From the IMG/VR virus record IMGVR_UViG_3300031673_000001: 64,000 bases of DNA, one strand, 5' to 3'. The DNA comes from a virus. Lineage: Duplodnaviria; Caudoviricetes. The notes beneath the pieces are model-generated. The model saw only the letters and a program-made list of their open reading frames with translations, was not told where the DNA came from and searched no databases. A program made the translations under genes and the position numbers. Each line of letters opens with the position of its first letter. Within the stretch, counting starts at the first letter, position 1. Shown here piece by piece: positions 3-40,188 of the stretch.

Positions 3-1487
3 ATCATCAACACTTGGAAAGAAACTATAGCTCAACTACAATTAAAAGATTTCGATCCAACTAAAGTTCAAACAGAAATAGATGTCTTACAAAAAGATTT
101 AGATTCTATTGAACTGCAAAATGAATCTCAAGAAAATCAACTGCTAACTCAAAAAGAACTTAAAATATATGAGTTAAAAAGTAAAGCAGATGAAGCTAAA
201 GAAGATCTCACCATAAGTTACAATAAAATTAAAGACGAATCAGTAGCTGAATGGAGAGAAGGTGAATCCAAAATAAATAAAAAAGTAAAAGAATTAATAG
301 AAGAGAAACATAAACTCGAAGTAGATGTTCAAACATTTAAAACTCAAGTTTTATCATTCAAGCAAAATATTAATAAAATCAATCAAAGCGTATTTGAATC
401 TAAAATATCATCATGCCCAACTTGTCTTCAAAAAATTACTGGTGATGTTAAACAACATCTAAAAGATGAAATTAAAAAATCTGAAGATTCTATTATAAAC
501 TGTGAAGAAAGTATTAAGAAATTTAATGATAGTATTTATGCACTTGGTTTAAAAATTACTGATGAACAACAAAAGTTAAATAATCTCAACATTCAATATG
601 ATATTGAATTAAAAGTATTAAAACAAAATCATGAAGAAAAACTTGAAGAAGTAAATGAAAGAATAAAAACTGTTCTTGAAAAAGTTGAAATAGCTGGAAA
701 AGAACAATTATCTATTCTTCGATCTAATTCACTTATAAAGATCAATCAATTAAATGAATCAATAAAGAAATTGTTATCCAAAAAAATAGAAGTTGAACTT
801 ATTAAACAAGAACTAGAATCATCTAAACAATCTTTACAAATAGCAGAGAACACAAAACAAAATCTTTTGAGAGATATTAGACAAAAAGAAGAAGAAGAAT
901 ATAATGAAACCCAATTGAATGGTTATATCAGTAGAGTTATAGAATATACAAAAGAGATTCAAGCTATTCAAAAATCAATTATATCTGAAAATAGACTATA
1001 TCAAATATATGATTTTTGGAAATCTGCTTATTCACCCACTGGTATTCCATCAACATTAATTGATGAAGCTATTCCATTTATGAATAAAAAAGTATCTGAA
1101 TATTTGGAGGAAATATCAAATGGTCGTTATATTATTTCATTTGATACCCAGGATGCAATCAAGTCAGGAGAAATGAGAGATAAAATTTCAGTTAAAGTTT
1201 TGGATACACATACAAGAGCAAATAAAAGACTTCAGTTATCAGGTGGTCAAACAAGATTAGTTGATATTGCAACAGTATTAACCCTTGGAGATTTACAATC
1301 AAAGAATTTAGGAATAAAAGTAAATCTATTAATATTTGATGAAATCTTTGATAGTTTGGATGCTCAAAATATTGATTATGTATCTAAGGTATTAATAAGA
1401 TTAAAGAAAGGAAAATCAATATATTTAATTTCACATACTCACCAAGACCAACTAGAAGCAGATCAAGTTCTTCAGTTTAAATCATAA
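3..1487 (+). CDS. sbcC: Rad50/SbcC/T4 gp46-like ABC-ATPase (recombination nuclease subunit), 5'-truncated by window edge
   Basis: Frame is open from position 3, well upstream of the track start at 771. Coiled coil with zinc hook CPTC (414-425), signature LSGGQ, Walker B LLIFDE, D-loop SLD, H-loop LISH. Confidence 0.93.
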   Translation: MINTWKETIAQLQLKDFDPTKVQTEIDVLQKDLDSIELQNESQENQLLTQKELKIYELKSKADEAKEDLTISYNKIKDESVAEWREGESKINKKVKELIEEKHKLEVDVQTFKTQVLSFKQNINKINQSVFESKISSCPTCLQKITGDVKQHLKDEIKKSEDSIINCEESIKKFNDSIYALGLKITDEQQKLNNLNIQYDIELKVLKQNHEEKLEEVNERIKTVLEKVEIAGKEQLSILRSNSLIKINQLNESIKKLLSKKIEVELIKQELESSKQSLQIAENTKQNLLRDIRQKEEEEYNETQLNGYISRVIEYTKEIQAIQKSIISENRLYQIYDFWKSAYSPTGIPSTLIDEAIPFMNKKVSEYLEEISNGRYIISFDTQDAIKSGEMRDKISVKVLDTHTRANKRLQLSGGQTRLVDIATVLTLGDLQSKNLGIKVNLLIFDEIFDSLDAQNIDYVSKVLIRLKKGKSIYLISHTHQDQLEADQVLQFKS

Positions 1488-1496
1488 GGAGGTTTA

Positions 1497-2519
1497 ATGA
1501 TAAGAATAGTAAATTGGTTGTTAACTCGTAGATGTAACCTAAATTGTGACTACTGTGCAATTGTAAAAAACTATCCCACCATGCCTTCTGAATATCCTCC
1601 TATGAGTCATTATATAAAAAATGAAATGACCACAGAGCAAGTTATCAAAGGATTAGATCAATTTCAGTTGCACAATCCAGATTGCTTTCATATCTGGTAT
1701 GGCGGCGAGCCAATTTTGAGGAAAGATTTAGCTGATATTATCAACCACTGTAATGAAAATTATATTCACTACACTATCATATCAAATAATACAAATGAAA
1801 TTATTCCATTGATTGAAAACTTATTTGATAACGTTGATCATATTCAAGGATTTACTGCATCTGTTGATCCATCATTTAATGAAAAAGGTAAGTTTGACAG
1901 AATAATAAAAAGCATATCTGGTTTTGAAAATCTTTTAAAACTCAAAGATCGTATTAATGATGTTGTTGCTGAAATAACAGTTATGAAACATAATGTAAAA
2001 TATCTATATGATCTTGTTAAACTATTAACAGAAAATGGGATCAGCAGTGATATAACATTTGTTGATATAGCAAAAAGTCCATTTTATGATTTCTCTAATA
2101 TAAGTGATGAAAACTTATTGGTAGAACAATCTTCAGAATTATCTGATGTATTTGATTCGTTAAATGATAGTGATTTAGATATTCATATGAAAGAAATCTT
2201 ATTACCAAAAATCTGGGAAATTCTACCATCAGAATTAGATTGTGAATTGGAGAAAGATCTTCATAATGTAACCGTTGATGCAGATGGAACGATTAGATTA
2301 TGTTTAAGAATAAGAGGAACTCATGCTCCAAAATTAGTTAAGGTATCAAATTTAATCGACTCAAAAGGTAACATATCATTTATTGCTGAAAAAGCAATTT
2401 CAAAAGATAAAGAAGTTCATTGTCTAGGATGTAACCATACATGCTTATTAATGAGTAAACATATTAATGAAACAGATCAAGGAACAGAAGATTTAATTCA
2501 TCTCGATAGGAGGGTATAA
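1497..2519 (+). CDS. Radical SAM enzyme with C-terminal Cys cluster (SPASM/twitch-like)
   Basis: CxxxCxxC (CNLNCDYC), GGEP motif, C-terminal C..CLGCNHTC; SD AGGAGG upstream. Confidence 0.88.
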   Translation: MIRIVNWLLTRRCNLNCDYCAIVKNYPTMPSEYPPMSHYIKNEMTTEQVIKGLDQFQLHNPDCFHIWYGGEPILRKDLADIINHCNENYIHYTIISNNTNEIIPLIENLFDNVDHIQGFTASVDPSFNEKGKFDRIIKSISGFENLLKLKDRINDVVAEITVMKHNVKYLYDLVKLLTENGISSDITFVDIAKSPFYDFSNISDENLLVEQSSELSDVFDSLNDSDLDIHMKEILLPKIWEILPSELDCELEKDLHNVTVDADGTIRLCLRIRGTHAPKLVKVSNLIDSKGNISFIAEKAISKDKEVHCLGCNHTCLLMSKHINETDQGTEDLIHLDRRV

Positions 2520-2521
2520 AA

Positions 2522-2836
2522 ATGGCAGCAGAAGAGCAGATTAGAAATGCAGTTAAATTTTGGGAAACCATATATGAAGCTGGAGAAGCAACCATTCGAT
2601 TTATTAAAAAGAGTGGAGTTTCAAGAACTATGAAATGTACCTTAGATTTTGAAAAAATTCCACAGAAACATCATCCTAAAAGTGTTAATATGCCAAAGAT
2701 ATTAAAGTTGATGCAAAAGAGTGGAATAATTCATGTCTATGATTTAGATAAAGGTGACTGGAGATCAGTTCCATTTGCAACTGTTGATTGGTTAGAAACT
2801 TCTGATCAGAGATATAAAATTTCACCTATAAAATAG
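2522..2836 (+). CDS. Small phage protein, WYL_2/DUF2693-like Sm/SH3 fold
   Basis: Pattern IRFIKKSG..RTM.CTL ... VYDLDKGDWRSV resembles the WYL_2/DUF2693 family. Confidence 0.55.
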   Translation: MAAEEQIRNAVKFWETIYEAGEATIRFIKKSGVSRTMKCTLDFEKIPQKHHPKSVNMPKILKLMQKSGIIHVYDLDKGDWRSVPFATVDWLETSDQRYKISPIK

Positions 2837-2844
2837 GAGCAATT

Positions 2845-3222
2845 ATGGATATTATAGATCAACTTTTAAAAGATATCCCATCAAGTGATATTACAGTACT
2901 GATAAAGGAATTTTGCACAAAAATATGGGAAGAAGAAAGCACAAAAGTAAAATATCCTCAAGTACTGCCAAGTGGAGCAAATATATTTCTTGCATTAGAA
3001 GTTCCTGCTAAAAATAAAGGACACATCTCATTTTTAACATTAGAAAGAGATCCAATGGATGAATATATTTCTAATTACTATTCAATAAAAATAATTGATA
3101 TTCAAGGTGCGGATTTACCCCAGATGCCACGAAGACATCAATCTCATAAACTTGAGGGAAGATCAGCAAAAAAAATAATAACTGAATTTGCAAAACTTAT
3201 AAAATTCTATAGAGGGGAATAA
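2845..3222 (+). CDS. Hypothetical protein
   Basis: 125-aa ORF with AGGAG SD, tightly packed in the operon; no motif recognised. Confidence 0.7.
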   Translation: MDIIDQLLKDIPSSDITVLIKEFCTKIWEEESTKVKYPQVLPSGANIFLALEVPAKNKGHISFLTLERDPMDEYISNYYSIKIIDIQGADLPQMPRRHQSHKLEGRSAKKIITEFAKLIKFYRGE

Positions 3223-3225
3223 CAA

Positions 3226-5886
3226 ATGCAATTGGGAATGAAAGATCTTTATGAAGATTATGATATTAGAATAAATAAACGTTATACATCTCTATTAATT
3301 TCGCATCAACCAACTGATTTATCAGCACAGGATCATACTGAAGCATTACCAACTAAACGAATAAAAGTATTACCAACAGATGAATATCTTAAAAAATATT
3401 CATTATTATCAGAAAAAACTTCAACGATTCTTCCTCCTGGTTGTAGATATATTGAAACGCTTAAAAATGGAGGAAGAATATATGTTATTGAAGAACCACC
3501 CCAATTTAGAACAGTAGCAATGTCATTAAACTTTGATCTTATGTATGAAGAAATTAAATCAAAAGGATTACTAGAAGAATATGATATTAAAGGTTGGTTA
3601 GAGAGCAATGTTACACAAACTTCATCAACTAACAGATACTATAAATTAAATCTTGCATTTCCATATGTTGTATTTGTCATTTATATTAATGAAAAAGCAA
3701 ATGTCGAAGTTGGTTATTCTTTTATTAGAACTAGTCAAATGATAGGATTATCTGATTATCTTTTAAAAATGCCAATGTCAAATATTGCAGAAAGTCAGGC
3801 AATATGTTTTGGTGATAGACTTAATTCAGAATCATATAACACAGATCATGAAGCTGTTAGATCAACTATTGATATATTTTGGACAAGTATCTTTAATACA
3901 GACTACACATATAACATCAATGCATATAAAAACGTTGTAGGAATATCAAATTTTTTAGAATGGCAATATCTATCAAGAAAAGATCCAATGTTTGTATATG
4001 TCGCTGACTGGGTTAGATATAATCACAATATCTTTGAACTTATTAATATTATAAAAGAAAGAAGAACCAGCAGATCAAATAATAATGGTAATTCAGATAC
4101 TTATACTACATTTTTAAAAACCTTTACAAAACCCGCAATCATTGGAGAAATTCAAACTGGAAAAATTAATAAAAGAGTTGATCAGCTTTATTATGACATC
4201 ACTACTGGTTTTTATATAACTGATATACTTAAATTAGAAATTGGAGATTCTTTTGAAAATGTAAATAAAACAAAGAAATATTTCGTTATTTCATTTATTG
4301 GCATTAGAGGAGACGATCCTAAAATAATAAGAATTTCATATAATGAAAAAGTATTTAATTTTACACTAAATAGAAAATCTATTCAATATTTAAAAGAAAG
4401 AATTGAAGAACAGCGATTTATTAAAACTATTGATCTTAATGGATTCATTATTAAATCCGGTGATATTATTAAATATATAGATATCACTGGGTCAGAAGTA
4501 TGTAAAAAAATTTACTATATTAGAAAATGTATAGATGGTCGACCAGAGATAAGAATGGGAAATAGATATTATTTAGCTAACAATCTTCCAAAAGGATTAG
4601 AAAAAGTAGATACAGATAATTTAAGCATATATGATATGAATTTGAAAATAGGGGATGAATATTTATACAGTCATTCTAATGCAAGTGATTCTCCTATTAT
4701 CAAACAAATAGAAAGATGTATATTTGATAGTATTGATGTTGCATCAAATAATGACTTGATGTTTAAATTTAAGTCTATGGATCCTCAAAGACAAAATGCC
4801 GACTTAGCAGTATATAGTAATAATACTTCAAACAATCGTCGCAATAGAAGAATATATCCAAAACTTGATTATACAGCAATATGTCAAAATTCTAAAGCAA
4901 CTTCAGTTGGTCGAAGTATTATGGAATTTATAGAGTTTGATGATAATGGAAGCACAATTCCATCCATAGTCTATAAAACACCTACTCACTATAATATTAA
5001 TGTTAATGCACTTTGTGAAAAATCTAAATCAGAAAATATTAAAAATCTCATTAAGAATGATACCACATTTGAAATAGATACCCACTCTGGCATTGTTAAA
5101 TTTGAAGTTGGTGATCTAGTTGTAGTTGCAAATTGGACAAACCCTTTAAGTGTTCTAGATATTAAAAGAATTGAAGCATTTAAAATAGAAGAGAAAGTAA
5201 AAACCATTAACATATCATTTATATTAGCAAATAAACTAGGAAATCTATCTGAAGAATTATTTGTAACTGGTTCTAATGTTCGTATTGGATATATCAGAAA
5301 AATTACAACTAAATTTCAACAGGTATCTGCTGGAATGAAGATTAAAGCAGAAAAAGGAAGAATATCAAATTTTCCAAAAAAAGATTACAATATTATTGTT
5401 GGTATTATTACTGACGGTCCGCAACCATTAGTATTATGTTCAAATGGTTGTACTTTATGGTATGAAGATGTTATAGAAAATTTCAAACTAATTCCAATAA
5501 ACTCTATACTATGGAAGAGCAATGATCATGTTGAATTTGATCTAAAGAAAATTAAACTTCAATCGGGAGATATTGCTATTCCTAATTATTATGGTAATGT
5601 TAATGATCCAGGACTCTTGATGGTTCAAAGTCAAATGAAAAGAGCTTTGAGATATCATCCATTAGACTCGTATTCAAGAAGGTATGATAGTTATAGCGCT
5701 AATTCTGATATGTCGCTTCATAAAGACTGTACATTACATTGTATACCAAATCCAAGAGTTTCAAAATCCGAGCAAGATAAAAATGGTTTTATTAGAGCAG
5801 TTCCTAATTTTCATGGAGGTTTTTATCTAAGTGAAAACTCACACTTTCTATATGTAAATGACTCAAGGAGCTTAATTAATGTTTAA
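3226..5886 (+). CDS. Prokaryotic E2 family D (PRTRC protein B-like) domain fused to tandem SH3/KOW-like repeats
   Basis: N-terminal LPPG..IEEPP..RTV / LAFPYVVF / MPMSNIAESQAICFG / FWTSIFN pattern of Prok-E2_D; six C-terminal modules starting LEIGDSF, IKSGDII, LKIGDEY, FEVGDLV, VSAGMKI, LQSGDIA. Confidence 0.72.
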   Translation: MQLGMKDLYEDYDIRINKRYTSLLISHQPTDLSAQDHTEALPTKRIKVLPTDEYLKKYSLLSEKTSTILPPGCRYIETLKNGGRIYVIEEPPQFRTVAMSLNFDLMYEEIKSKGLLEEYDIKGWLESNVTQTSSTNRYYKLNLAFPYVVFVIYINEKANVEVGYSFIRTSQMIGLSDYLLKMPMSNIAESQAICFGDRLNSESYNTDHEAVRSTIDIFWTSIFNTDYTYNINAYKNVVGISNFLEWQYLSRKDPMFVYVADWVRYNHNIFELINIIKERRTSRSNNNGNSDTYTTFLKTFTKPAIIGEIQTGKINKRVDQLYYDITTGFYITDILKLEIGDSFENVNKTKKYFVISFIGIRGDDPKIIRISYNEKVFNFTLNRKSIQYLKERIEEQRFIKTIDLNGFIIKSGDIIKYIDITGSEVCKKIYYIRKCIDGRPEIRMGNRYYLANNLPKGLEKVDTDNLSIYDMNLKIGDEYLYSHSNASDSPIIKQIERCIFDSIDVASNNDLMFKFKSMDPQRQNADLAVYSNNTSNNRRNRRIYPKLDYTAICQNSKATSVGRSIMEFIEFDDNGSTIPSIVYKTPTHYNINVNALCEKSKSENIKNLIKNDTTFEIDTHSGIVKFEVGDLVVVANWTNPLSVLDIKRIEAFKIEEKVKTINISFILANKLGNLSEELFVTGSNVRIGYIRKITTKFQQVSAGMKIKAEKGRISNFPKKDYNIIVGIITDGPQPLVLCSNGCTLWYEDVIENFKLIPINSILWKSNDHVEFDLKKIKLQSGDIAIPNYYGNVNDPGLLMVQSQMKRALRYHPLDSYSRRYDSYSANSDMSLHKDCTLHCIPNPRVSKSEQDKNGFIRAVPNFHGGFYLSENSHFLYVNDSRSLINV

Positions 5887-7537
5887 AATAGTAGTTGCCG
5901 ATGGAAAACAAGAACTACCAGATGATGATATTTATTATATAGTTGCAAAAGAAGGTATTTTTATAAAAAAGAAATTGGGCATTATGGATAGTGTATCACC
6001 AGTTAAAAATATTTCAATATTAAAAAGTGTTCAAGCAACAGCAAAGATGAATATTGAAAAAATACCATCAATATCTATAGCTAAGGTTTCTAATTTCTTT
6101 AGAGCTGTTCAAAAAGAACATAGATCAGAAGCAATTGTATTATTATTTTATAATGAAAAAACTAAAAAATATAAGTTATTTCCGCCAGCACAAAAAGTGA
6201 GTCCTGCATCAATTGAATATAATAGGGCAGTTGTTATAGATGGTTGGACCATGATTGGTGATATTCATAGTCATAGTTCAATGTCTGCATTTCATTCAGG
6301 AACAGATCAAGGAGATGAGGAGTCTTTCGATGGATTACATATTACATTTGGAAATATGAACTCTGATTTAATAAGTATCTCCGCCTCAATTGTTTCAAAT
6401 GGTAACAGAGTAATAGTTAAACCAGAAGAATATATGAAAGGTATAGAATTAAAAGAAGAGATTGATGAAGTTGAGCAAATTCCTACCACAAGAGTTTATA
6501 GGTGGATCAATGGAAAAATGGTTGAAACAACTCCAAAATTTACAACCGCAGGATTTAAAACCTATCGTAAATATGATAAACGATACAAGGTAGTAAGTGA
6601 GAATGCTATTAAAGCTCAAGTTCCACCCTCATGGTTAGATGCTATTGAAGAACATGAAGTTCGTCATATTTATGGTAATTTTAATCAGTCATTCATAAAT
6701 TGGCCAGAGCATTATAGACATGGATATCCTCAATTTAATCGCGGACCTTGGGCTCCTCGTATTAAAAATGGATGGAATAGAAATTTTGATCCAGATGTTT
6801 GGAGTAGAGAATCTATTAAAGTTCCACCTCAAAATGTTGGAGTTAAAACTAAACCTATTACATTTCCTCCGCATGACCAAGGTCCACTTATTACTGATAT
6901 AACTACTCCTACCAAACCAACTCCTTGTGAATCCTGTGCATTCAAGGAAAGAGCAATTGAATATGTTGCTAAAATAATGGTAGAGAAAAATCAAGGATCC
7001 ATTGAAGAACAGGAAGATGATATATTTGATAAAGAGTCATATGAATGTGAGAAGTGTAATCTAATTGTATCATTTTATTATGATGACTGTGGAGAAATTA
7101 AAGATGATATTATATGTCCATCATGTAAATCAGATGAGCATTTAACCCTACTTGATATAGGATTAAAGGATAAAGATGAAGATGAAGATGATGATCCCTA
7201 TAATTTTGATGACTATCTTTCTGATTTAAAACAAGATTATAAAATCAATTGTAAAACTTGTGGAAGTCAGTTTGATTTATCAATGACAAAAAAAGATGAT
7301 AATGGAGTATCATGTCCATTCTGTGGAAAATTATTATCTACAGAAACAGAAAGCGATCTATTAGATTTAGATGGAGTTAATATAAAGAATATAAGCGAAG
7401 AAGAAATTTCTAATTATAAAGCAGCAAAAGAAAATCCAAATCCATCTAATATAATACCAGATCCTTCTAAACAAATGGTAGCAGACAGTATAAACTCACT
7501 TAAACAATTATTTGAAAAATTTAGGGGAAATAGATGA
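5879..7537 (+). CDS. JAB/JAMM (MPN+) metallo-isopeptidase, PRTRC protein A-like, with C-terminal zinc ribbons and acidic tail
   Basis: E...HxHx7Sx2D motif (SEAIV...IHSHSSMSAFHSGTD); CEKC/CPSC and CKTC/CPFC pairs; D/E-rich stretch. Confidence 0.9.
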   Translation: MFKIVVADGKQELPDDDIYYIVAKEGIFIKKKLGIMDSVSPVKNISILKSVQATAKMNIEKIPSISIAKVSNFFRAVQKEHRSEAIVLLFYNEKTKKYKLFPPAQKVSPASIEYNRAVVIDGWTMIGDIHSHSSMSAFHSGTDQGDEESFDGLHITFGNMNSDLISISASIVSNGNRVIVKPEEYMKGIELKEEIDEVEQIPTTRVYRWINGKMVETTPKFTTAGFKTYRKYDKRYKVVSENAIKAQVPPSWLDAIEEHEVRHIYGNFNQSFINWPEHYRHGYPQFNRGPWAPRIKNGWNRNFDPDVWSRESIKVPPQNVGVKTKPITFPPHDQGPLITDITTPTKPTPCESCAFKERAIEYVAKIMVEKNQGSIEEQEDDIFDKESYECEKCNLIVSFYYDDCGEIKDDIICPSCKSDEHLTLLDIGLKDKDEDEDDDPYNFDDYLSDLKQDYKINCKTCGSQFDLSMTKKDDNGVSCPFCGKLLSTETESDLLDLDGVNIKNISEEEISNYKAAKENPNPSNIIPDPSKQMVADSINSLKQLFEKFRGNR

Positions 7538-8220
7538 AAGAATTATCCATTAAAATCATTGGGTTGGGTGGCGTTGGTTCAGTATTATGTGAAAAGATAG
7601 CAAGATTTTTAAATTACGCCACAGATATTAACGCAAAGTTGACATTAGTAGATGGTGATTCGTATGAAAGTAAAAATTATCAAAGACAAGAATTTACACA
7701 GATGGGAAATAAATCTAGGATTAAAGGTGGAGATTTAGAAAATAAGTTTCCAAATATAGATTTAGATTATTATCCTGCATATATAAATAATGTAAATATT
7801 AATGAAGTCATAAAGTCAGACGATATTGTATTTCTATGTGTTGATAATCATAAAACTAGAATGATCACATCTAAATACTGTAATATGTTAAGCAATATTA
7901 CTTTGATATCTGGTGGAAATGAATTTACGGATGGTAATGTACAAATTTATGTCAGGAAAGGGGGGAAAGATTTAACACCTGATCTCTGTTCTTATCATCC
8001 AGAAATTGCAAATCCCGCAGATAAATTACCAGAGGAAATGAGTTGTGAAGAATTAGCAAATTCAGATCCTCAACTCTACTTCACCAATGTGTGGGTAGCT
8101 ACACTTATGTGTGCAGCATTTTATAATGTAGTTATAAAAAATAACATTGGACCATCTGAAATTTATTTTGATATGACACAGATGTCCGCTATTGCGAAAA
8201 TAAGAGCTCTTAAACAATAA
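7534..8220 (+). CDS. E1/ThiF-family ubiquitin-like activating enzyme
   Basis: GLGGVG nucleotide loop, LVDGD, NYQRQ, GNK, CVDN..R, and a putative catalytic Cys in MSCEE followed by QLYFTN. Confidence 0.92.
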   Translation: MKELSIKIIGLGGVGSVLCEKIARFLNYATDINAKLTLVDGDSYESKNYQRQEFTQMGNKSRIKGGDLENKFPNIDLDYYPAYINNVNINEVIKSDDIVFLCVDNHKTRMITSKYCNMLSNITLISGGNEFTDGNVQIYVRKGGKDLTPDLCSYHPEIANPADKLPEEMSCEELANSDPQLYFTNVWVATLMCAAFYNVVIKNNIGPSEIYFDMTQMSAIAKIRALKQ

Positions 8221-8250
8221 CTGTAAAACAAAGCAAGGAGAATTAAAATC

Positions 8251-8742
8251 ATGGCAAGCGAATATACTTATGAAAATCTGGATAAAATGACCGTCCCCGA
8301 ACTTCGACGTCTATGTGTTGATAAACTTGGAATTCCAGGTATGACCAAAAAACGCAAAGATATTATCATTAAAGCTATTATAAAGCTTCAAGGAAGTTCA
8401 TCCAAACCCTCAGTAGCACCTACTGCAGTAGCTACTGCACCAAAACAAGAAGGTCCATTAACTGAATTAGGTTTTTCTGGACATAGTGTTTTAGATAAAC
8501 CCTATGCATCATTTGGTAATAAAATGAAAACCACAATTCAGGTAACTTGTGGTGCTAGTTCAGGAGCTTTTCCTGTTGAAGGAAAAAGTGTATCTGAAGT
8601 TGGTGAGTTCCTGCGGGAAGTTCTGAATGTGGATAAACTGTCCACAGGTCTGGTCAATGGAAAAGAAATCCCTGGAAGTTATATACTGAAAAACGGAGAT
8701 AGTTTGGAATTTATGAAACCTGCTGGTCGTAAAGGTCGTTAA
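8251..8742 (+). CDS. Rho-N/HeH-like domain fused to a ubiquitin-like (beta-grasp) domain
   Basis: N-term LDKMTVPELRRLC..LGIPGMTKKRKDIIIKAI (Rho_N pattern); Ser/Pro/Ala linker; C-term LVNG...YILKNGDSLEF.KPAGRKGR* (ThiS/Prok_Ub-like ending). Confidence 0.82.
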   Translation: MASEYTYENLDKMTVPELRRLCVDKLGIPGMTKKRKDIIIKAIIKLQGSSSKPSVAPTAVATAPKQEGPLTELGFSGHSVLDKPYASFGNKMKTTIQVTCGASSGAFPVEGKSVSEVGEFLREVLNVDKLSTGLVNGKEIPGSYILKNGDSLEFMKPAGRKGR

Positions 8743-8753
8743 TTGTGCTCCGA

Positions 8754-8781
8754 GGATGGGGATTCTATTGGATCCCCATCC
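8754..8781 (+). terminator. Perfect 10-bp hairpin after the Ubl gene (partial terminator or RNA processing/stability element)
   Basis: GGATGGGGAT-tctattgg-ATCCCCATCC; only a weak U-tract follows. Confidence 0.55.
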
Positions 8782-8808
8782 AATTCTTCAGAAAGGAGAT
8801 CTTAATCT

Positions 8809-9711
8809 TTGAAATTGGATAGTTTAACAATAATTGGAACTGGAACATTAGGAGCACATCTTTGTAAACATCTTGCTGAAAGTTCAGAAATAAGTAAGTT
8901 AATATTAATTGATGCTGATACAGTTGATTCAAAAGACATATCTATTGGTATTTTTAAACAAGTAGATATTTGTCAACCAAAAGTACATGTATTGCATGAT
9001 ATGTTTTCTACTTATGATACTGAAATTGAACCAAGGGTAGAGTTTTATAAAGATGGTATTACACAATTAGCACCAACCGACCTTATAATTGATTGCAGAA
9101 ATGTGTTTGGAAAAAGGGATATTAACATTGATTTAAAAATGTTTATAACAGAAAGGATTTTAATATTAGATTTTGAAAAGAGATTTAAAAATGAAAGTCA
9201 ATTAAAAGGAGAGTACTCCTATAAGTTATCAAAACATGAAATAAGTACAGCTGCTCATTATGCTACAAATTTAATATTATGTAGCAATATTCTAGAAGAG
9301 TTATTAAAAAGTCAATCAGTTAAATGTATTCATATTGATACAATTAAGTCAATAATATTACAGAATATATGCAGTTCAAAACAAAGATATGATATAGTTT
9401 ATGATCTAGATAAGGATGTGGAAAGATTACCACGGATTCATGAAGTTATACAACCAATACTAAAAAAGAATAGAACATCTAATTTAAAGTTGGCAGTCAA
9501 AGAAAGAAGCTCAATTGCTAAAAATATTTTTGAATTTCCAGATGCACCTAAAACAAAATATCAAATAATACCACAAAATAGTTTAAGACAACCAGAAGAT
9601 GTAATTAATTTTTTGAAAAAAATAGTTCAAACTAAAAACGGAACTTCGAAACTTAGACCGGTTCTTATACATGATGAAATTTATATTTTGTCAGAAACAG
9701 GAGGTGCATAA
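8809..9711 (+). CDS. Second, degenerate ThiF/E1-like protein
   Basis: TTG start after AGGAG; IIGTGTLG, LIDAD, Q-PK; N..RQ replaced by KDISIG and DxxD by DCRN. Confidence 0.7.
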   Translation: MKLDSLTIIGTGTLGAHLCKHLAESSEISKLILIDADTVDSKDISIGIFKQVDICQPKVHVLHDMFSTYDTEIEPRVEFYKDGITQLAPTDLIIDCRNVFGKRDINIDLKMFITERILILDFEKRFKNESQLKGEYSYKLSKHEISTAAHYATNLILCSNILEELLKSQSVKCIHIDTIKSIILQNICSSKQRYDIVYDLDKDVERLPRIHEVIQPILKKNRTSNLKLAVKERSSIAKNIFEFPDAPKTKYQIIPQNSLRQPEDVINFLKKIVQTKNGTSKLRPVLIHDEIYILSETGGA

Positions 9712-9712
9712 T

Positions 9713-10177
9713 ATGATTCATCACAATGTAACTATATGTGGAACCGGAAATATTCCATCCACGAATTATGATTTTTACTTTGAAAAAATAATTCCAAAGT
9801 TTACTTTACAAAATAAAACTTATCGACAAATAATCAATATACATAAAATTTATCATTTAGAAGGATTTTGTATTAAAACATACGATACTAAATTAAAAAA
9901 AGTTATGGTATATGGATGGCATCCTAATGTAGATTCTAAAACAAATGAACTTTGTTTATCCAATGATCTACAAGGACAATATGTTCTGGATATTGAAAAT
10001 CTGAAGAATCTATTAATTAGTATGCTTGAAGTTTACAACCTTGATGAATGTTATAATACACCAATTGCCAATCTTTATGAAACAAAAAATGTTGATGCTC
10101 AAGGACAACCATTCTACTTTAATCTTATGAAAGGAATTATATACAATGAACAATCATCCATTAGATCAATATATTGA
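9713..10177 (+). CDS. Ubiquitin-conjugating enzyme E2-like protein (UBC fold)
   Basis: HPNVDSKTNELCL matches the E2 active-site HPN(x7-8)CL; downstream LLISML..NLD helix. Start moved to ATG 9713, 7 nt after GGAGGT. Confidence 0.72.
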   Translation: MIHHNVTICGTGNIPSTNYDFYFEKIIPKFTLQNKTYRQIINIHKIYHLEGFCIKTYDTKLKKVMVYGWHPNVDSKTNELCLSNDLQGQYVLDIENLKNLLISMLEVYNLDECYNTPIANLYETKNVDAQGQPFYFNLMKGIIYNEQSSIRSIY

Positions 10178-10397
10178 AAATAGAATTAAAGAATATGTTA
10201 GGAATAATGAGACAATTATAAAAAAACAAGATGCACAAGTTATTATTAATACCTTAATGCCATTAGTTGATGAGATAATAGCAGATAAGGTAAAGCAGCA
10301 TTTAAAATTTATAGCACAATATTTAATAGATTCACTTAAATCAAAAGAGGAGAAACCAGTAGATGCCAAAGATACTGAACTATCAACAGTTTTGTGA
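10146..10397 (+). CDS. Hypothetical helical protein
   Basis: 83-aa ORF overlapping both neighbours, AAGGA SD. Confidence 0.6.
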   Translation: MNNHPLDQYIENRIKEYVRNNETIIKKQDAQVIINTLMPLVDEIIADKVKQHLKFIAQYLIDSLKSKEEKPVDAKDTELSTVL

Positions 10398-16638: not shown

Positions 16639-16760
16639 TTTTTGATAATCCAATATTATTATTTCAATGTTCAAATGATAGTGAACATAAACTTCTTGTA
16701 TTAGATGAATGGAAAGTAGCTATTGCAGAAGAATTTTATAGAGGAGCATATTATGAATGA
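16515..16760 (+). CDS. Small putative zinc-binding protein
   Basis: CSIC ... C.ND.EH; GGAG SD upstream of ATG. Confidence 0.6.
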   Translation: MLKTEYCSICKEEITIRYHIPDKNFKIEKGKIVRDDIHKGMIFDNPILLFQCSNDSEHKLLVLDEWKVAIAEEFYRGAYYE

Positions 16761-17610
16761 TAACGAATGTCTTCCAGATATACAATGTACAGAACCAGCA
16801 TTACAAATTCCTATCAAGCAAGTTGGAGTTGAAAATGTTGTGGTTCCTTTTAGTTTAGAATCTAAAAATGGTGGATTTCATAATTTGACAGCAAACGTCA
16901 CTATGATGACTAATTTAGATCATACAACAAAAGGAATCTCAATGTCTAGATTATTATTAACATTAAAACCATATTTGGAACTTCCATTAAAAAGTAAATT
17001 AATAAAAGAAATAATTAAAAAGATGTTAGAAAACGTTGGTGGTTCATCAGCATTTATGAGATTTAAATTTAGACTACCAAGAATTCGAGAATCCATTAAA
17101 ACAAAAAATTCATTTCCAATCTATTATAAATGTAAGTTTGAGGGACAGATATTTAAAAAAGAATTATATGAAGAATTTAGATTCTTTCAAGGGGTTACAG
17201 TTCAATATGCATCATATTGCCCATGTTCCGCAGAACTATGCAGCGTATTAAATGAAAGAGGATTTCCTCATAATCAAAGATCATTTGCGCAAATCTTAAC
17301 AGAAATAGATACTAAATCTCATTATGTTTGGTTAGAAGATATTATTGATGCAGTCGAAAATAATATACACACCTTACCATATCCAGTAATTAAAAGAATT
17401 GATGAACAAGAGATAGCAAGAATTGCAGCAAAGAATCCAATGTTTGTAGAAGATGCAATTAGAATAATATCTAATTCTGTTGATAAAATACCAGGTGTGA
17501 TAGATTGGGTTGTAAAATGTATTCATGAAGAATCAATACATACTTCTGAAGCAGTAGCAGTCAATTGGAAAGGAACTTTAAATGGATTTGATGGAAGGCG
17601 TTACATATGA
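16753..17610 (+). CDS. folE2: GTP cyclohydrolase I, type IB (FolE2/MptA family)
   Basis: IPIKQVGV, KGISMSRL, YASYCPCS, PHNQRS, NPMFVED..R, EESIH.SEA; start placed at ATG 16753 after GAGGAG. Confidence 0.93.
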   Translation: MNDNECLPDIQCTEPALQIPIKQVGVENVVVPFSLESKNGGFHNLTANVTMMTNLDHTTKGISMSRLLLTLKPYLELPLKSKLIKEIIKKMLENVGGSSAFMRFKFRLPRIRESIKTKNSFPIYYKCKFEGQIFKKELYEEFRFFQGVTVQYASYCPCSAELCSVLNERGFPHNQRSFAQILTEIDTKSHYVWLEDIIDAVENNIHTLPYPVIKRIDEQEIARIAAKNPMFVEDAIRIISNSVDKIPGVIDWVVKCIHEESIHTSEAVAVNWKGTLNGFDGRRYI

Positions 17611-23630: not shown

Positions 23631-25280
23631 ATGTCTGTTCACATTTCAAAGTTAGCTCAAAAATATGTAGAAGAGTTTATTAAATGTAAAGCATCATTTG
23701 ATTACTACTGTAGAAACTACGTTCTAATTGAGCTACCAGGTAGAGATGAAAAATTAATTCCTTATAGAAAACAAACTGAATTAATTGATTTAATTGAAAG
23801 TCAACATTATGTTCTTGTATTAAAGAGTAGGCAGATTGGAATCTCAACAATTATTCAAGCATATTCTTCTTGGTTAACCATATTTTTTGATAATGTTGTA
23901 ATAGGAATTATTTCAAAAGATGGAAAAGAAGCAACCGATTTTGCTAGAGCTGTTAGAGGAATTATAGAAAAACTTCCAGATTGGATGAAACCATTAAAGG
24001 GTATTTTAGGGAGAGGATTTGCAAAAAGAACTGAACAATCATTTATTTTAACAAATGGTAGTAAAGTTTTTGCTTCACCAGTAAATCCAAATGCTCCAGA
24101 AAAGACACTTCGTGGAAAAGCAATTACATTTTTAGTTATCGACGAAGCAGCATTTGTTCATTATGTTGATACTGCTTGGACTTCTATGGTACCAGCTCTT
24201 TCAACAAATCAGATGCAAGCTCGTAAAGCTAATATTCCATTTGGAACAATTGTTTTATCAACCCCAAATAAAACCATCGGTGTTGGGCAATGGTATTTTG
24301 AAAGATATTTAAAATCAATATCTGGAGATGATATATTCAAACCATTCGTTATTCATTGGAAAATGATTCCTGAACTTGCTGAAGATACTGAATGGTATAG
24401 TATGCAATGTAGATTATTCGATTATGATAAAAAGAAAATAGCTCAAGAGTTAGAATTAAAATTTCTGCCAGCAGAAGGATCATTTTTTGAAGCTGATACA
24501 GTTGAAAAAATGCAAGACAGCTCTATGGTTCCATTACAAAAAATTAAGTTATATAATGGAGAAATATGGCAATTTTCGCCATCAATACCTGGAACAACTT
24601 ATATTATAGGAGTTGATACAGCACCAGAACATGGTACAGATAAATCAGCTATCACAGTTTGGGACTATACAACATTAGAACAGGTATGGGAGTATCAAGG
24701 TAAATGTAAGGTATTAGATTTTGTAAATGTTGTCAAGGTAGCTGCTACAACATATAAAAATTCTGTTATAGTTGTAGAATCAAACTCATATGGAAATCAA
24801 GTTGTAGAACATTTAAATGCAAGCGAATATTCTACACAATTGTATAAAGAGAAACGTGGAAAGAATACTTTAGTTCCAGGTCTATCAACCAATTCTAAAA
24901 CGAGACCATTGATGATTGATGCACTATATTCTTATATGACTCAATATCCAGAATCTGTAAAATCAGAAAGATTAGCACTAGAGTTAACAGGACTTGTTTC
25001 TAAATCTAGTGGAAAGGTTGAAGCTGATACCGGGTGTACTGATGATATAGCATTATCAGCAGCTTTATGCTTTTATGTTAGAAAATACGATCCACCTCTA
25101 GCATTACAAATGAACTTGATAGATGGTTCAATGATAACAAATGATTTAAAAGATGTTCTCGGTTATAACGTTGGTCTTTCTGATGTTGAATTTACTGATC
25201 AAAGCATTATGAGATATGTTAAAAATAAACCAGAAGAAAATTTAGGGTATATAGATACAATAAGTTTCTTCAAGGGATGA
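23631..25280 (+). CDS. terL: Terminase large subunit (T4 gp17-like)
   Basis: Q motif PYRKQ, Walker A LKSRQIGIST, Walker B VIDEAAF, STPN coupling motif, nuclease GVDTA / VESN / DDIALS. Confidence 0.96.
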   Translation: MSVHISKLAQKYVEEFIKCKASFDYYCRNYVLIELPGRDEKLIPYRKQTELIDLIESQHYVLVLKSRQIGISTIIQAYSSWLTIFFDNVVIGIISKDGKEATDFARAVRGIIEKLPDWMKPLKGILGRGFAKRTEQSFILTNGSKVFASPVNPNAPEKTLRGKAITFLVIDEAAFVHYVDTAWTSMVPALSTNQMQARKANIPFGTIVLSTPNKTIGVGQWYFERYLKSISGDDIFKPFVIHWKMIPELAEDTEWYSMQCRLFDYDKKKIAQELELKFLPAEGSFFEADTVEKMQDSSMVPLQKIKLYNGEIWQFSPSIPGTTYIIGVDTAPEHGTDKSAITVWDYTTLEQVWEYQGKCKVLDFVNVVKVAATTYKNSVIVVESNSYGNQVVEHLNASEYSTQLYKEKRGKNTLVPGLSTNSKTRPLMIDALYSYMTQYPESVKSERLALELTGLVSKSSGKVEADTGCTDDIALSAALCFYVRKYDPPLALQMNLIDGSMITNDLKDVLGYNVGLSDVEFTDQSIMRYVKNKPEENLGYIDTISFFKG

Positions 25281-38175: not shown

Positions 38176-40188
38176 TTACTTAATGAAAAAGTTCAACTCA
38201 ATTTTCTCAACCACTCTGGTTGGTTCCAAGGTTACATTAACATGAAAAGTCTTTGTCTTTCTTTCATAATCCGTTGCCCCAACATCAATAGAATATGAAT
38301 CAAGACCTCGTTTGTTTTTTATAACCTCTAGAAACTCTGTTATTGCTCCTCCCACCTGACCCCAGGTAATAGGATCATTCTGTTCAAAGATAAAATATCT
38401 ACAGAATTGCTCAAGTGCTCTCTTACAATATAAAACAAGTCTTACAATATTTAAATCTTGTAATGCACTTGCTTTAGCTTGAGCGGTCAATTGTCCCCAA
38501 ACAACATAACCCGCTGAAAATTGAACAATTGGATTTAGTTGTTTTAGATACATCTGATCCCTTTGTCCAAGACGTGGATTATATCTAAGCTCCTTAATGT
38601 TATCTATTGCACCTCTATTAAATCCAGCAGCTGCAAACCAAAGCTGTGCAATATTGTCATTTCTTGGTAACAAGTATGACATATGATAAATCGGTGAGAA
38701 CCAAATATCTTGTCCTGTAAATGGATCAGATACTTTACTATATGATTCATATAATGATACATAATAATTATTATATGGATGACTACTTGTTCGTGTTGCT
38801 AATGCAGCTGTTACTGATACATTATCTCCATTATCAAGGATGCCAACACAATCTCTTCTAGTCGAACAAAGTGTGCTGATAGCTGTTTTTGTATCTGATG
38901 GATAACCAGCATCATACACAATTGAGAAATAAGTATTTTCTGTATCCAGGACTTCATCCACATAATTTCCATTATTCGGATTTGTTAGAATTCCTGTATA
39001 ACCTTGTTCAAGTAAAGTTGGTGCTGAAGATGCTGCCCAAACTCCAGAAGTATCAGTATTAAGACTTCTATCAAGTTTCCACAATGATCCTTCAGAACCT
39101 TTTCTTAAAGGTTTTGGTTCAGATGAACTAAATGCACTAGCAATATTTGAGTATGATTTCTTAATTGTATATGTAATTGATGAATCAGTATCAAAAGATG
39201 TAAAATCTGAAGATGTTGAATCCGTTGCCCAGGATTGAATTGCTGTATTTAAATCATTGGTTGACCAGACTTCCATTGTCTCACCATCAACACCTGATGA
39301 GTCGCCTAACCATCCATAGATTTCATTTCCTCTTCCATCTTTTGCAATAACTACATAAGATGCAGTCCCTGCTACAGCAGGTTCCCATTCAGAAAAGTCT
39401 TGCTTATTATCTGTAATTGTTGCGGAACCAGATGTTTTTACAACAACTGTTGTTCCAATATCTTTATCATAAGTTTTAACTGCTTGTTCATAACCACTTG
39501 TATAAGCTCCACTTGCAAGTTCCATATCCGCTCTTAAAACAGATGAATATGTTTCAAGAACAGATCCAATAAAAACTGACTCACCAGCTGAATCTACAGC
39601 ATTCGGGTCAAATGAAACTTCAAATGATTCAATTATAACATCATCATCATCCGACTGCTTCTCATATATATCTAGAACATAAACTCCATCTATCGTTGGG
39701 TTTGAGTGTATAGTAAGTCGTATTCCTAAAGAGTTATAATAATCACCTCTTCCAATTGGTCTTAAGAATGCAATTGGATTTTTTAAACCATCAACTTCAA
39801 GATTTGTTGTAATCTCACCTTTTGTATTTAAACTATCAACATAAGTGATTGAAGTTACTGAAGTACCATCACCAACCAATTGATTATCAATTCTAAAATT
39901 AGCGTAAGTAGCATCATCTGGTAATAGACGAATCCAAAATAACGCTCCAGATTCTCCTAAATGATTATATGCTACATATGGACCTTGTCCATAACTCTTT
40001 CCAAAGTCAACAATATTCGGTTCACCAAATTCTGAAATTAGTTCAGATCTTGAACCTAAAAATAGTAATTCATTATCTCTACCTTTATGTGTAAAACCGC
40101 ACAGAAAACCAATGGTTGACGGTACAGCTTGCACAAAAGCAGAGAGATCAATAATCTTGGTATAAACGCCTGGGCTCACATTTGACAT
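38176..40188 (-). CDS. Contractile tail sheath protein (gp18-like)
   Basis: MS..SPGVYTKIIDLS N-terminus; WFAAAGFNRG, LY..Q.NPIV, WGQ.T, LNIVRL..Y, FIFEQND..TW, P.R.VE.I.L.F. Confidence 0.95.
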   Translation of the reverse strand: MSNVSPGVYTKIIDLSAFVQAVPSTIGFLCGFTHKGRDNELLFLGSRSELISEFGEPNIVDFGKSYGQGPYVAYNHLGESGALFWIRLLPDDATYANFRIDNQLVGDGTSVTSITYVDSLNTKGEITTNLEVDGLKNPIAFLRPIGRGDYYNSLGIRLTIHSNPTIDGVYVLDIYEKQSDDDDVIIESFEVSFDPNAVDSAGESVFIGSVLETYSSVLRADMELASGAYTSGYEQAVKTYDKDIGTTVVVKTSGSATITDNKQDFSEWEPAVAGTASYVVIAKDGRGNEIYGWLGDSSGVDGETMEVWSTNDLNTAIQSWATDSTSSDFTSFDTDSSITYTIKKSYSNIASAFSSSEPKPLRKGSEGSLWKLDRSLNTDTSGVWAASSAPTLLEQGYTGILTNPNNGNYVDEVLDTENTYFSIVYDAGYPSDTKTAISTLCSTRRDCVGILDNGDNVSVTAALATRTSSHPYNNYYVSLYESYSKVSDPFTGQDIWFSPIYHMSYLLPRNDNIAQLWFAAAGFNRGAIDNIKELRYNPRLGQRDQMYLKQLNPIVQFSAGYVVWGQLTAQAKASALQDLNIVRLVLYCKRALEQFCRYFIFEQNDPITWGQVGGAITEFLEVIKNKRGLDSYSIDVGATDYERKTKTFHVNVTLEPTRVVEKIELNFFIK

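Follow-up and report, generated by a model that had tools for sequence, protein, structure and literature searches.

A 64,000-nucleotide stretch of DNA (IMG/VR virus record IMGVR_UViG_3300031673_000001, henceforth termed the window), the source of which is an uncultured giant phage, encodes an 886-amino-acid (aa) protein, P0001, that joins a ubiquitin-conjugating enzyme (E2)-type domain with an invariant Asn–Cys pair to a long, beta-rich C-terminal region containing SH3-fold barrels. The gene lies in a conserved operon with genes for a JAB peptidase, a ThiF-type activating enzyme (E1), and a ubiquitin-like protein (Ubl). We favor, with a probability of roughly 55%, the reading that this giant protein is the conjugating enzyme of a phage-borne Ubl tagging system with a built-in target-docking platform, similar to UBE2O. 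What is new here is the fusion of an E2-D-type domain to an SH3-fold array, in a phage.

In the mechanism that we propose, the JAB peptidase would remove the residue beyond the terminal Gly of the Ubl, and the ThiF E1 would adenylate the Ubl and hand it over as a thioester to Cys194 of P0001. The C-terminal 585 residues would comprise six motif-bearing SH3-fold barrels (KOW/Tudor/BAH-core-like) and one extra beta module; these barrels would keep a target protein beside the charged Cys, and the enzyme would thereby act as a hybrid of E2 and ligase (E3), as UBE2O does. We infer the thioester chemistry and the order of transfer from the UBC fold, the invariant Asn/Cys pair, and the neighboring genes, and target binding by the barrels from the kinds of domains present and the analogy to UBE2O.

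Until now, Ubl conjugation in bacteria has been linked with defence against phages (CBASS Cap2, Bil), whereas here the phage itself carries the enzyme logic, in a large conserved family. An E2 with a long array of reader-type barrels is otherwise known from eukaryotic UBE2O. If the barrels choose targets, P0001 would offer a handle for finding what the phage tags in infection, as well as a compact, E3-free, and possibly re-targetable conjugation enzyme. In addition, the uncharacterised PRTRC/E2-D family gains a candidate active site, N186 and C194.

An E2-type N-terminal domain

The open reading frame (ORF) of P0001 runs from an ATG at 3226 to a stop codon at 5884–5886, and 40 full-length metagenomic homologues were found for its product. 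An AlphaFold2 (AF2) model of the whole protein reached a mean predicted local distance difference test score (pLDDT) of 82.8 and a predicted template modelling score (pTM) of 0.55, at which the mutual placement of UBC domain and barrels is unreliable; residues 1–300 were modelled separately (pLDDT 84.5). In a structure search without preset target, the top ~34 matches to residues 67–270 were all E2, UEV, or RWD proteins. The closest ESM Atlas cluster to this domain carries PF14460 (Prok-E2_D; template modelling scores 0.60/0.67 over 194 residues, root-mean-square deviation 2.3) and is rich in phage proteins. Foldseek against the PDB with the N-domain alone gave no match at E ≤ 0.001, with Ube2S appearing first at rank 35.

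The original prediction, made from the sequence alone, had assigned the N-terminal ~250 aa to the E2 family D on the strength of the strings MPMSNI....AICFG and FWTSIFN. Both are present (residues 182–196 and 218–224), a UBC fold was modelled, and each of the 37 full-length homologues that were aligned matches PF14460 (E ≤ 0.1, lowest 1.9e-5), with no other family recurring among them. The extent needs revision: the UBC domain occupies residues 67–270 and is preceded by an additional beta/alpha piece at residues 1–66. UQ_con (PF00179) gave no Pfam match to P0001, PHROGs assigned it no family, and searches of PDB sequences with an N-domain profile and a C-terminal profile returned chance-level matches only.

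The family alignment points to a putative active site within the UBC domain. N186, C194, and W219 are invariant in all 165 full-length relatives, and G196 is kept in 159. C194 is the only invariant cysteine of the E2 domain, eight residues past the invariant Asn, and other cysteines vary across the same relatives (C73 conserved in 92%, C738 in 81%). An Asn-to-Cys distance of eight is also found in the HPN...C of UbcH5-type E2s. With respect to the classical HPN triad, P0001 keeps P-x-x-N and the spacing and has lost the His. We regard Cys194 as the putative catalytic residue and Asn186 as the putative equivalent of the HPN Asn. C738, which lies in module M6 of the C-terminal region, was considered as a second catalytic Cys and ruled out because it is conserved in only 134 of the 165 relatives, 29 members having Phe, Leu, or Met.

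SH3-fold barrels in the C-terminal region

Residues 302–886 (585 aa) are beta-rich. Six modules had been predicted here, each opening with a hydrophobic-x-x-G-[DM] motif typical of KOW, SH3, and Tudor barrels. The motifs are real: six occur in the C-terminal 586 aa, starting at residues 337, 409, 473, 626, 700, and 778, versus 0.86 ± 0.91 expected from 20,000 shuffles (P ~1e-4). Four of the six lie precisely at the turn joining two predicted short strands of the AF2 model, and those at 700 and 778 just ahead of a strand. A Gly-Asp turn at the first hairpin is common to KOW domains and the phage modules, the KOW turn occupying the same place as the motifs in the model. Conservation of the motif Gly and Asp residues among the 165 relatives is 90% or more (G340/D341, G629, G703, and G781/D782), except at D413 (143/165).

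A Foldseek search with the whole model returned multi-KOW Spt5 chains on top (9wms_W, E 5.8e-7, probability 0.97), then tandem Agenet/Tudor domains (7yt9), and lower down UBE2O. Three modules, M2, M3, and M5, individually match SH3-like barrels of the BAH, Tudor, KOW, CarD-RID, and UBE2O kinds; M1 is covered only within the multi-KOW Spt5 alignments. Five-stranded SH3-type barrels were found in the region. ESM Atlas rows across residues 613–760 align SH3-like helicase 2B domains; an ESM Atlas search by features gave no usable match. Neither KOW (PF00467) nor any Tudor/SH3 Pfam family recurs among 37 members of the family, and a PDB sequence search was likewise without match. The same small five-stranded SH3-fold barrel, often in tandem, makes up the KOW arrays of Spt5/NusG, the tandem Tudor/Agenet/BAH readers of chromatin, and the RNA polymerase-interacting domains of CarD and Mfd.

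The predicted set of six barrel modules is borne out in part: M2, M3, and M5 match SH3-like folds singly, but sequence repeats are not detectable, and an extra module without the motif, M4 (residues 553–612), is present. Since the modules lack significant sequence similarity to one another, the term “repeat” holds at the level of the fold only, and the modules would seem, from their sequences, to be old or independently recruited barrels rather than recent repeats. The original prediction had staked itself on a UBC-like N-domain and a barrel-forming C-terminal region; examined by model and Foldseek, neither a non-UBC N-domain nor a C-terminus devoid of barrels was found.

Conservation by part is highest in M6 (0.56), above the UBC domain (0.45), and then falls through M5 (0.44), M2 (0.39), M1 (0.29), M7 (0.26), and M3 (0.20) to M4 (0.17). 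In M6, the best-conserved part of the protein, N740 is identical in 165 and S739 in 162 of the 165 relatives; R844 in M7 is conserved in all of them. A conservation peak at M6, followed by UBC and M5, is what a fixed partner would produce. It fits a reading in which the barrels serve as scaffold or address label instead of reading substrates: they would bind other members of the system (E1/pseudo-E1, JAB, Ubl) or tether P0001 to a fixed part of the cell, for instance RNA polymerase or nucleic acid, and targets would be chosen elsewhere. M5 resembles RNA polymerase-binding barrels (CarD-RID, Mfd-RID, the Tudor domain of UvrD/PcrA, and the KOW domain of NusG/Spt5), and the Ubl block is invariably found immediately upstream of the RNA polymerase genes of the phage. 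We nevertheless consider a pure scaffold quite improbable, and in what follows treat the barrels as a candidate target-docking platform.

The surrounding operon

The giant E2 gene is packed head-to-tail with its neighbors, several of which overlap (Table 1). Their order is SbcC-like protein, radical SAM/SPASM-like protein, WYL_2 protein, 125-aa protein, giant E2, JAB, ThiF E1, Ubl, degenerate ThiF, small HPN...C protein, and RNA polymerase. This order is kept in relatives with 34–35% identity and in three more distant members (five related contigs). A scan for promoters and terminators gave results at chance level.

Table 1. Features of P0001 and of other genes in the window.
Feature	Position	Strand	Remarks
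Radical SAM/SPASM maturase-like protein	1497-2519	+	Pfam, NCBIfam
WYL_2 Sm-like SH3 barrel protein	2522-2836	+	Pfam, NCBIfam
125-aa protein	2845-3222	+	
Giant E2-D-like protein P0001	3226..5886	+	886 aa, ORF intact
N-terminal extension, residues 1-66	3226..3423	+	3 strands and helices, weak conservation
UBC (E2)-fold domain, Prok-E2_D type, residues 67-270	3424..4035	+	
Putative active-site motif P183-x-x-N186-I187-x6-C194-x-G196	3772..3813	+	Family alignment
Helical linker, residues 271-301	4036..4128	+	pLDDT 49-61, conservation 0.15
Beta module M1, residues 302-384	4129..4377	+	LEIGD at 337; 8 short strands; then helix 383-397
Barrel M2, residues 398-465	4417..4620	+	IKSGD at 409; BAH-core / capped-Tudor / TraI SH3-like
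Barrel M3, residues 466-548	4621..4869	+	LKIGD at 473; Tudor-like, variable
Beta module M4, residues 553-612	4882..5061	+	No motif; 6 short strands and helix in model; least conserved
Barrel M5, residues 613-694	5062..5307	+	FEVGD at 626; KOW / Tudor-like
Module M6, residues 695-768	5308..5529	+	VSAGM at 700; strands in model; FPKKD...PLVLCSNGCTLW
Module M7 and C-terminal tail, residues 770-886	5533..5883	+	LQSGD at 778; P843-R844 invariant; strands and helices in model
JAB/JAMM peptidase, PRTRC protein A-like, Zn-ribbon tail	5879..7537	+	PF14464 E 8.8e-5; 8-nt overlap with E2 gene
ThiF-type E1, 228 aa, Cys171 invariant	7534..8220	+	PF00899 E 6e-20
Ubl, Rho_N/HeH-type head and beta-grasp	8251..8742	+	
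Second, degenerate ThiF-like protein, 300 aa	8809..9711	+	Only N-terminal fold part matches
Small HPN...C E2-like protein, 168 aa	9671..10177	+	UQ_con E 0.0059, below cut-off
RNA polymerase beta', 893 aa	10363-13044	+	Single unsplit ORF
RNA polymerase beta, 1013 aa	13224-16265	+	Single unsplit ORF
Large terminase	23631-25280		Window gene
Tail sheath	38176-40188	-	

The JAB protein and the E1 match the PRTRC_A (TIGR03735, E 2.5e-15) and PRTRC_ThiF (TIGR03736, E 4.7e-10) models below their cut-offs. For the E1, 1011 homologues were found at E ≤ 1e-10, with 62–86% identity among the matches listed. An E1 that shares 63% identity with that of the phage (P0286) was deposited under the name ThiF family adenylyltransferase, with a Candidatus Thorarchaeota archaeon as its source; its contig of 255,557 bp is probably that of a giant phage, placed in an archaeal metagenome-assembled genome by binning. 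A complex prediction of the E1 (alignment A6) with the E2-D N-domain (alignment A2) scored 0.01 and is evidence neither way. The Ubl ends in KPAG(K/R)KG followed by at most one residue (R in the window, C in the related contig L001, none in L002), and we count the presence of a Ubl with a capped terminal Gly near the giant E2 in favor of the tagging reading. Trimming of capped Ubls by a JAB peptidase, BilC, and transfer from E1 to E2 have both been shown for Bil systems (PMC10557695). In three phages the degenerate ThiF-like protein ends in ETG(G/A)A, a conserved tail reminiscent of the C-terminus of a Ubl, and it could be either a pseudo-E1 working as a partner or a carrier in its own right.

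The small E2-like protein keeps H84-P85-N86 and C95 invariant in three phages (the window and two related ones), and the operon therefore holds two E2-like genes. This observation leads to the main rival of our reading, in which the E1 charges the small HPN protein as the true E2; from there the Ubl would move to Cys194 of the giant protein and on to a target held by the barrels, i.e., an E3-like Cys relay with HECT/RBR-like logic on a UBC fold. The kept H-P-N and Cys speak for such a relay, as does the occurrence of two E1-like and two E2-like genes in one block, and bacterial Bub pathways are reported to pass through two to three successive Ubl~Cys intermediates (PMC11601596). However, the E2-D protein is the sole E2-like gene listed in PRTRC cassettes, the match of the small protein to UQ_con is weak, and its N-terminal half is divergent, with lengths varying from 111 to 168 aa. 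On balance we hold a relay to be unlikely and retain direct conjugation by the giant protein.

Upstream, the radical SAM, WYL_2, and 125-aa genes (1497..3222) precede the giant E2 as a trio in 5/5 related contigs examined. That a gene for a radical SAM/SPASM maturase-like protein is always found two or three positions upstream could be taken to mean that no protein is tagged, and that E1 and Ubl form an adenylation, sulfur-carrier, or RiPP-like (ribosomally made, post-translationally modified peptide) system with this enzyme, the giant protein being non-catalytic or structural. ThiF-type enzymes are indeed reported to act in sulfur transfer and RiPP assembly as well. Yet Cys and Asn within the UBC fold are invariant, the block also contains genes for a JAB peptidase and two E2-like proteins, and the Ubl ends in KKG, unlike sulfur carriers, which end in GG. 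That the giant protein works with the radical SAM enzyme in something other than conjugation seems unlikely, and of the readings weighed here this one strikes us as the least probable.

Downstream of the Ubl block, the RNA polymerase genes (beta' then beta) follow directly in all contigs extending there, and the kinds of barrels that dock NusG, Spt5, CarD, Mfd, and UvrD on RNA polymerase resemble the phage module M5. A highly speculative extension of the tagging reading, and in our estimate a long shot, is that a large clade of uncultured giant phages uses the KOW/Tudor-type barrels of an E2/E3 hybrid to put a Rho_N/HeH-headed Ubl on host or phage transcription machinery. If true, RNA polymerase or its factors would undergo a phage-directed “ubiquitylation” as a step of takeover or regulation.

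Known systems and the phage family

For comparison with PRTRC protein B we used two annotated plasmid sequences, L003 (91.7 bits on PF14460) and L005 (annotated protein B). Both PRTRC-B proteins and the phage family have PxxN-x7-C-x-G and a UBC-type fold, and the phage order of E2-D, PRTRC_A-like JAB, and ThiF equals the B-A-ThiF order of the PRTRC cassettes. A third, weakly matching plasmid protein keeps PxxN-x7-C but not the Gly. An hhalign comparison of the N-domain alignment (A2) with one PRTRC-B gave a probability of 0.9% and served motif alignment only. The systems differ in size (240–275 aa without barrels for PRTRC-B, 886 aa for the phage protein), in the Ubl (a 68-aa Prok_Ub before the E1 in PRTRC, a Rho_N-headed beta-grasp protein after the E1 in the phage), and in the carrier, PRTRC residing on conjugative plasmids and islands and the phage protein on a giant phage. 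No Pfam or NCBIfam match to a ParB-family gene or to PRTRC C, E, or F was found among the neighboring ORFs from 3 to 10397. We also noted an unannotated cluster on Metabacillus plasmid pB218 (Bacillota; L004, 5525-8441) consisting of a 300-aa protein with a weak Prok-E2_D match (E 0.0012), a small ORF, a JAB-like gene, and ThiF, which is intermediate between the PRTRC cassettes and the phage block.

The closest precedent in architecture is UBE2O, a human and fungal E2/E3 hybrid (PDB 7un6, 7yw1) that combines a UBC domain with several SH3-like domains, both kinds of which also occur in the phage protein. In UBE2O, five SH3-like domains together build the substrate-binding site, which is turned toward the cysteine of the UBC domain (PMC12818219). 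The barrels of UBE2O are N-terminal, whereas those of the phage are C-terminal, and the sequences are unrelated, such that homology is not implied; UBE2O moreover has a classical UBC domain with HPN, while substrate binding by the phage protein is suggested by its domain kinds. Type I/II BilABCD and CBASS Cap2/Cap3 (PMC10557695, PMC10097602) are host anti-phage defences, in contrast to the phage-carried system. BilB has a conserved His near its Cys (Cys138/His151 in E. aridi BilB, PMC10557695) that has no counterpart in the phage E2-D family, and fused barrels, present in the phage E2, have not been described for Bil or CBASS.

Several observations weigh against the tagging reading. The Pfam Prok-E2_D match of P0001 itself is weak (residues 146–235, E 0.011, 15.9 bits with a cut-off of 25), and no NCBIfam model, including PRTRC_B, matches it at E ≤ 0.05. 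About 30 residues after the Cys, the two PRTRC-B sequences carry THPN, where the phage family has (I/A)-x-F-N instead, in agreement with the earlier suspicion that the His usually found after the E2-D Cys is replaced; no conserved His occurs anywhere in the N-domain alignment of the phage family. We would class the E2 domain as a diverged Prok-E2_D relative and not, going by the curated thresholds, as a family member. Such Pfam names call for caution, since the “prokaryotic E2 family C” proved not to be an E2 (PMC10557695), and for PRTRC/E2-D proteins we found no paper on mechanism among the titles listed and know of no assay. It is also conceivable that the classical-looking second E2 (HPN...C) conserved in the operon is the real one, with the giant protein acting after an E2 instead of being the sole E2. 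On the side of the barrels, M1, M4, M6, and M7 are presumed to be small barrels on the basis of the short strands, five to eight in succession, that the model shows, and hhalign of the seven modules and the N-terminal piece against each other gave probabilities of at most 16%, with only the short motif alike. Finally, the barrels' net charge, which could have hinted at nucleic acid or basic clients, has no consistent sign (family mean +1.9, standard deviation 11.8). The earlier idea of an E3-like reader is partly supported, in that the two structural predictions held up and UBE2O offers a precedent; net charge lends no support to its nucleic-acid variant.

Searching with an N-domain profile retrieved 1824 cluster representatives at E ≤ 0.001, 212 of them at E ≤ 1e-30. 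Among the best 150 of the 1824, nearly all measure 810–985 aa, the few short ones looking like fragments, and when short relatives were sought with a word index, only fragments of genes on tiny contigs turned up. Judging by these lengths, the combination of E2-D and barrels appears to be the rule across the family. BFVD holds structurally similar phage proteins of 240–620 aa without names, in rows that give no aligned ranges. With tblastn, neither the whole protein nor residues 60–270 found a match among 50,697 deposited phage records. A literature search found no paper on a phage E2-D with fused barrels, although such absence is not proof.

The window has a G+C content of 27–35% (~28–30% near the giant E2 gene) and genes on both strands, among them baseplate and fibre genes in addition to the terminase and tail sheath genes of Table 1. 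The closest relatives of its terminase among deposited phages, ~30% identical, belong to uncultured huge phages and Flavobacterium phages. The giant E2 protein occurs on contigs of up to 237,638 bp. DNA of this phage is present in soil and sediment metagenome sequencing runs, with no RNA run among those listed. As a side observation, the window encodes a FolE2-type GTP cyclohydrolase (16723-17610, plus strand; 216.6 bits, at cut-off), and related contigs carry PTPS (QueD-like) genes (L001, 511-927; L002, 313-741), which hints at a phage 7-deazaguanine or pterin-type pathway.

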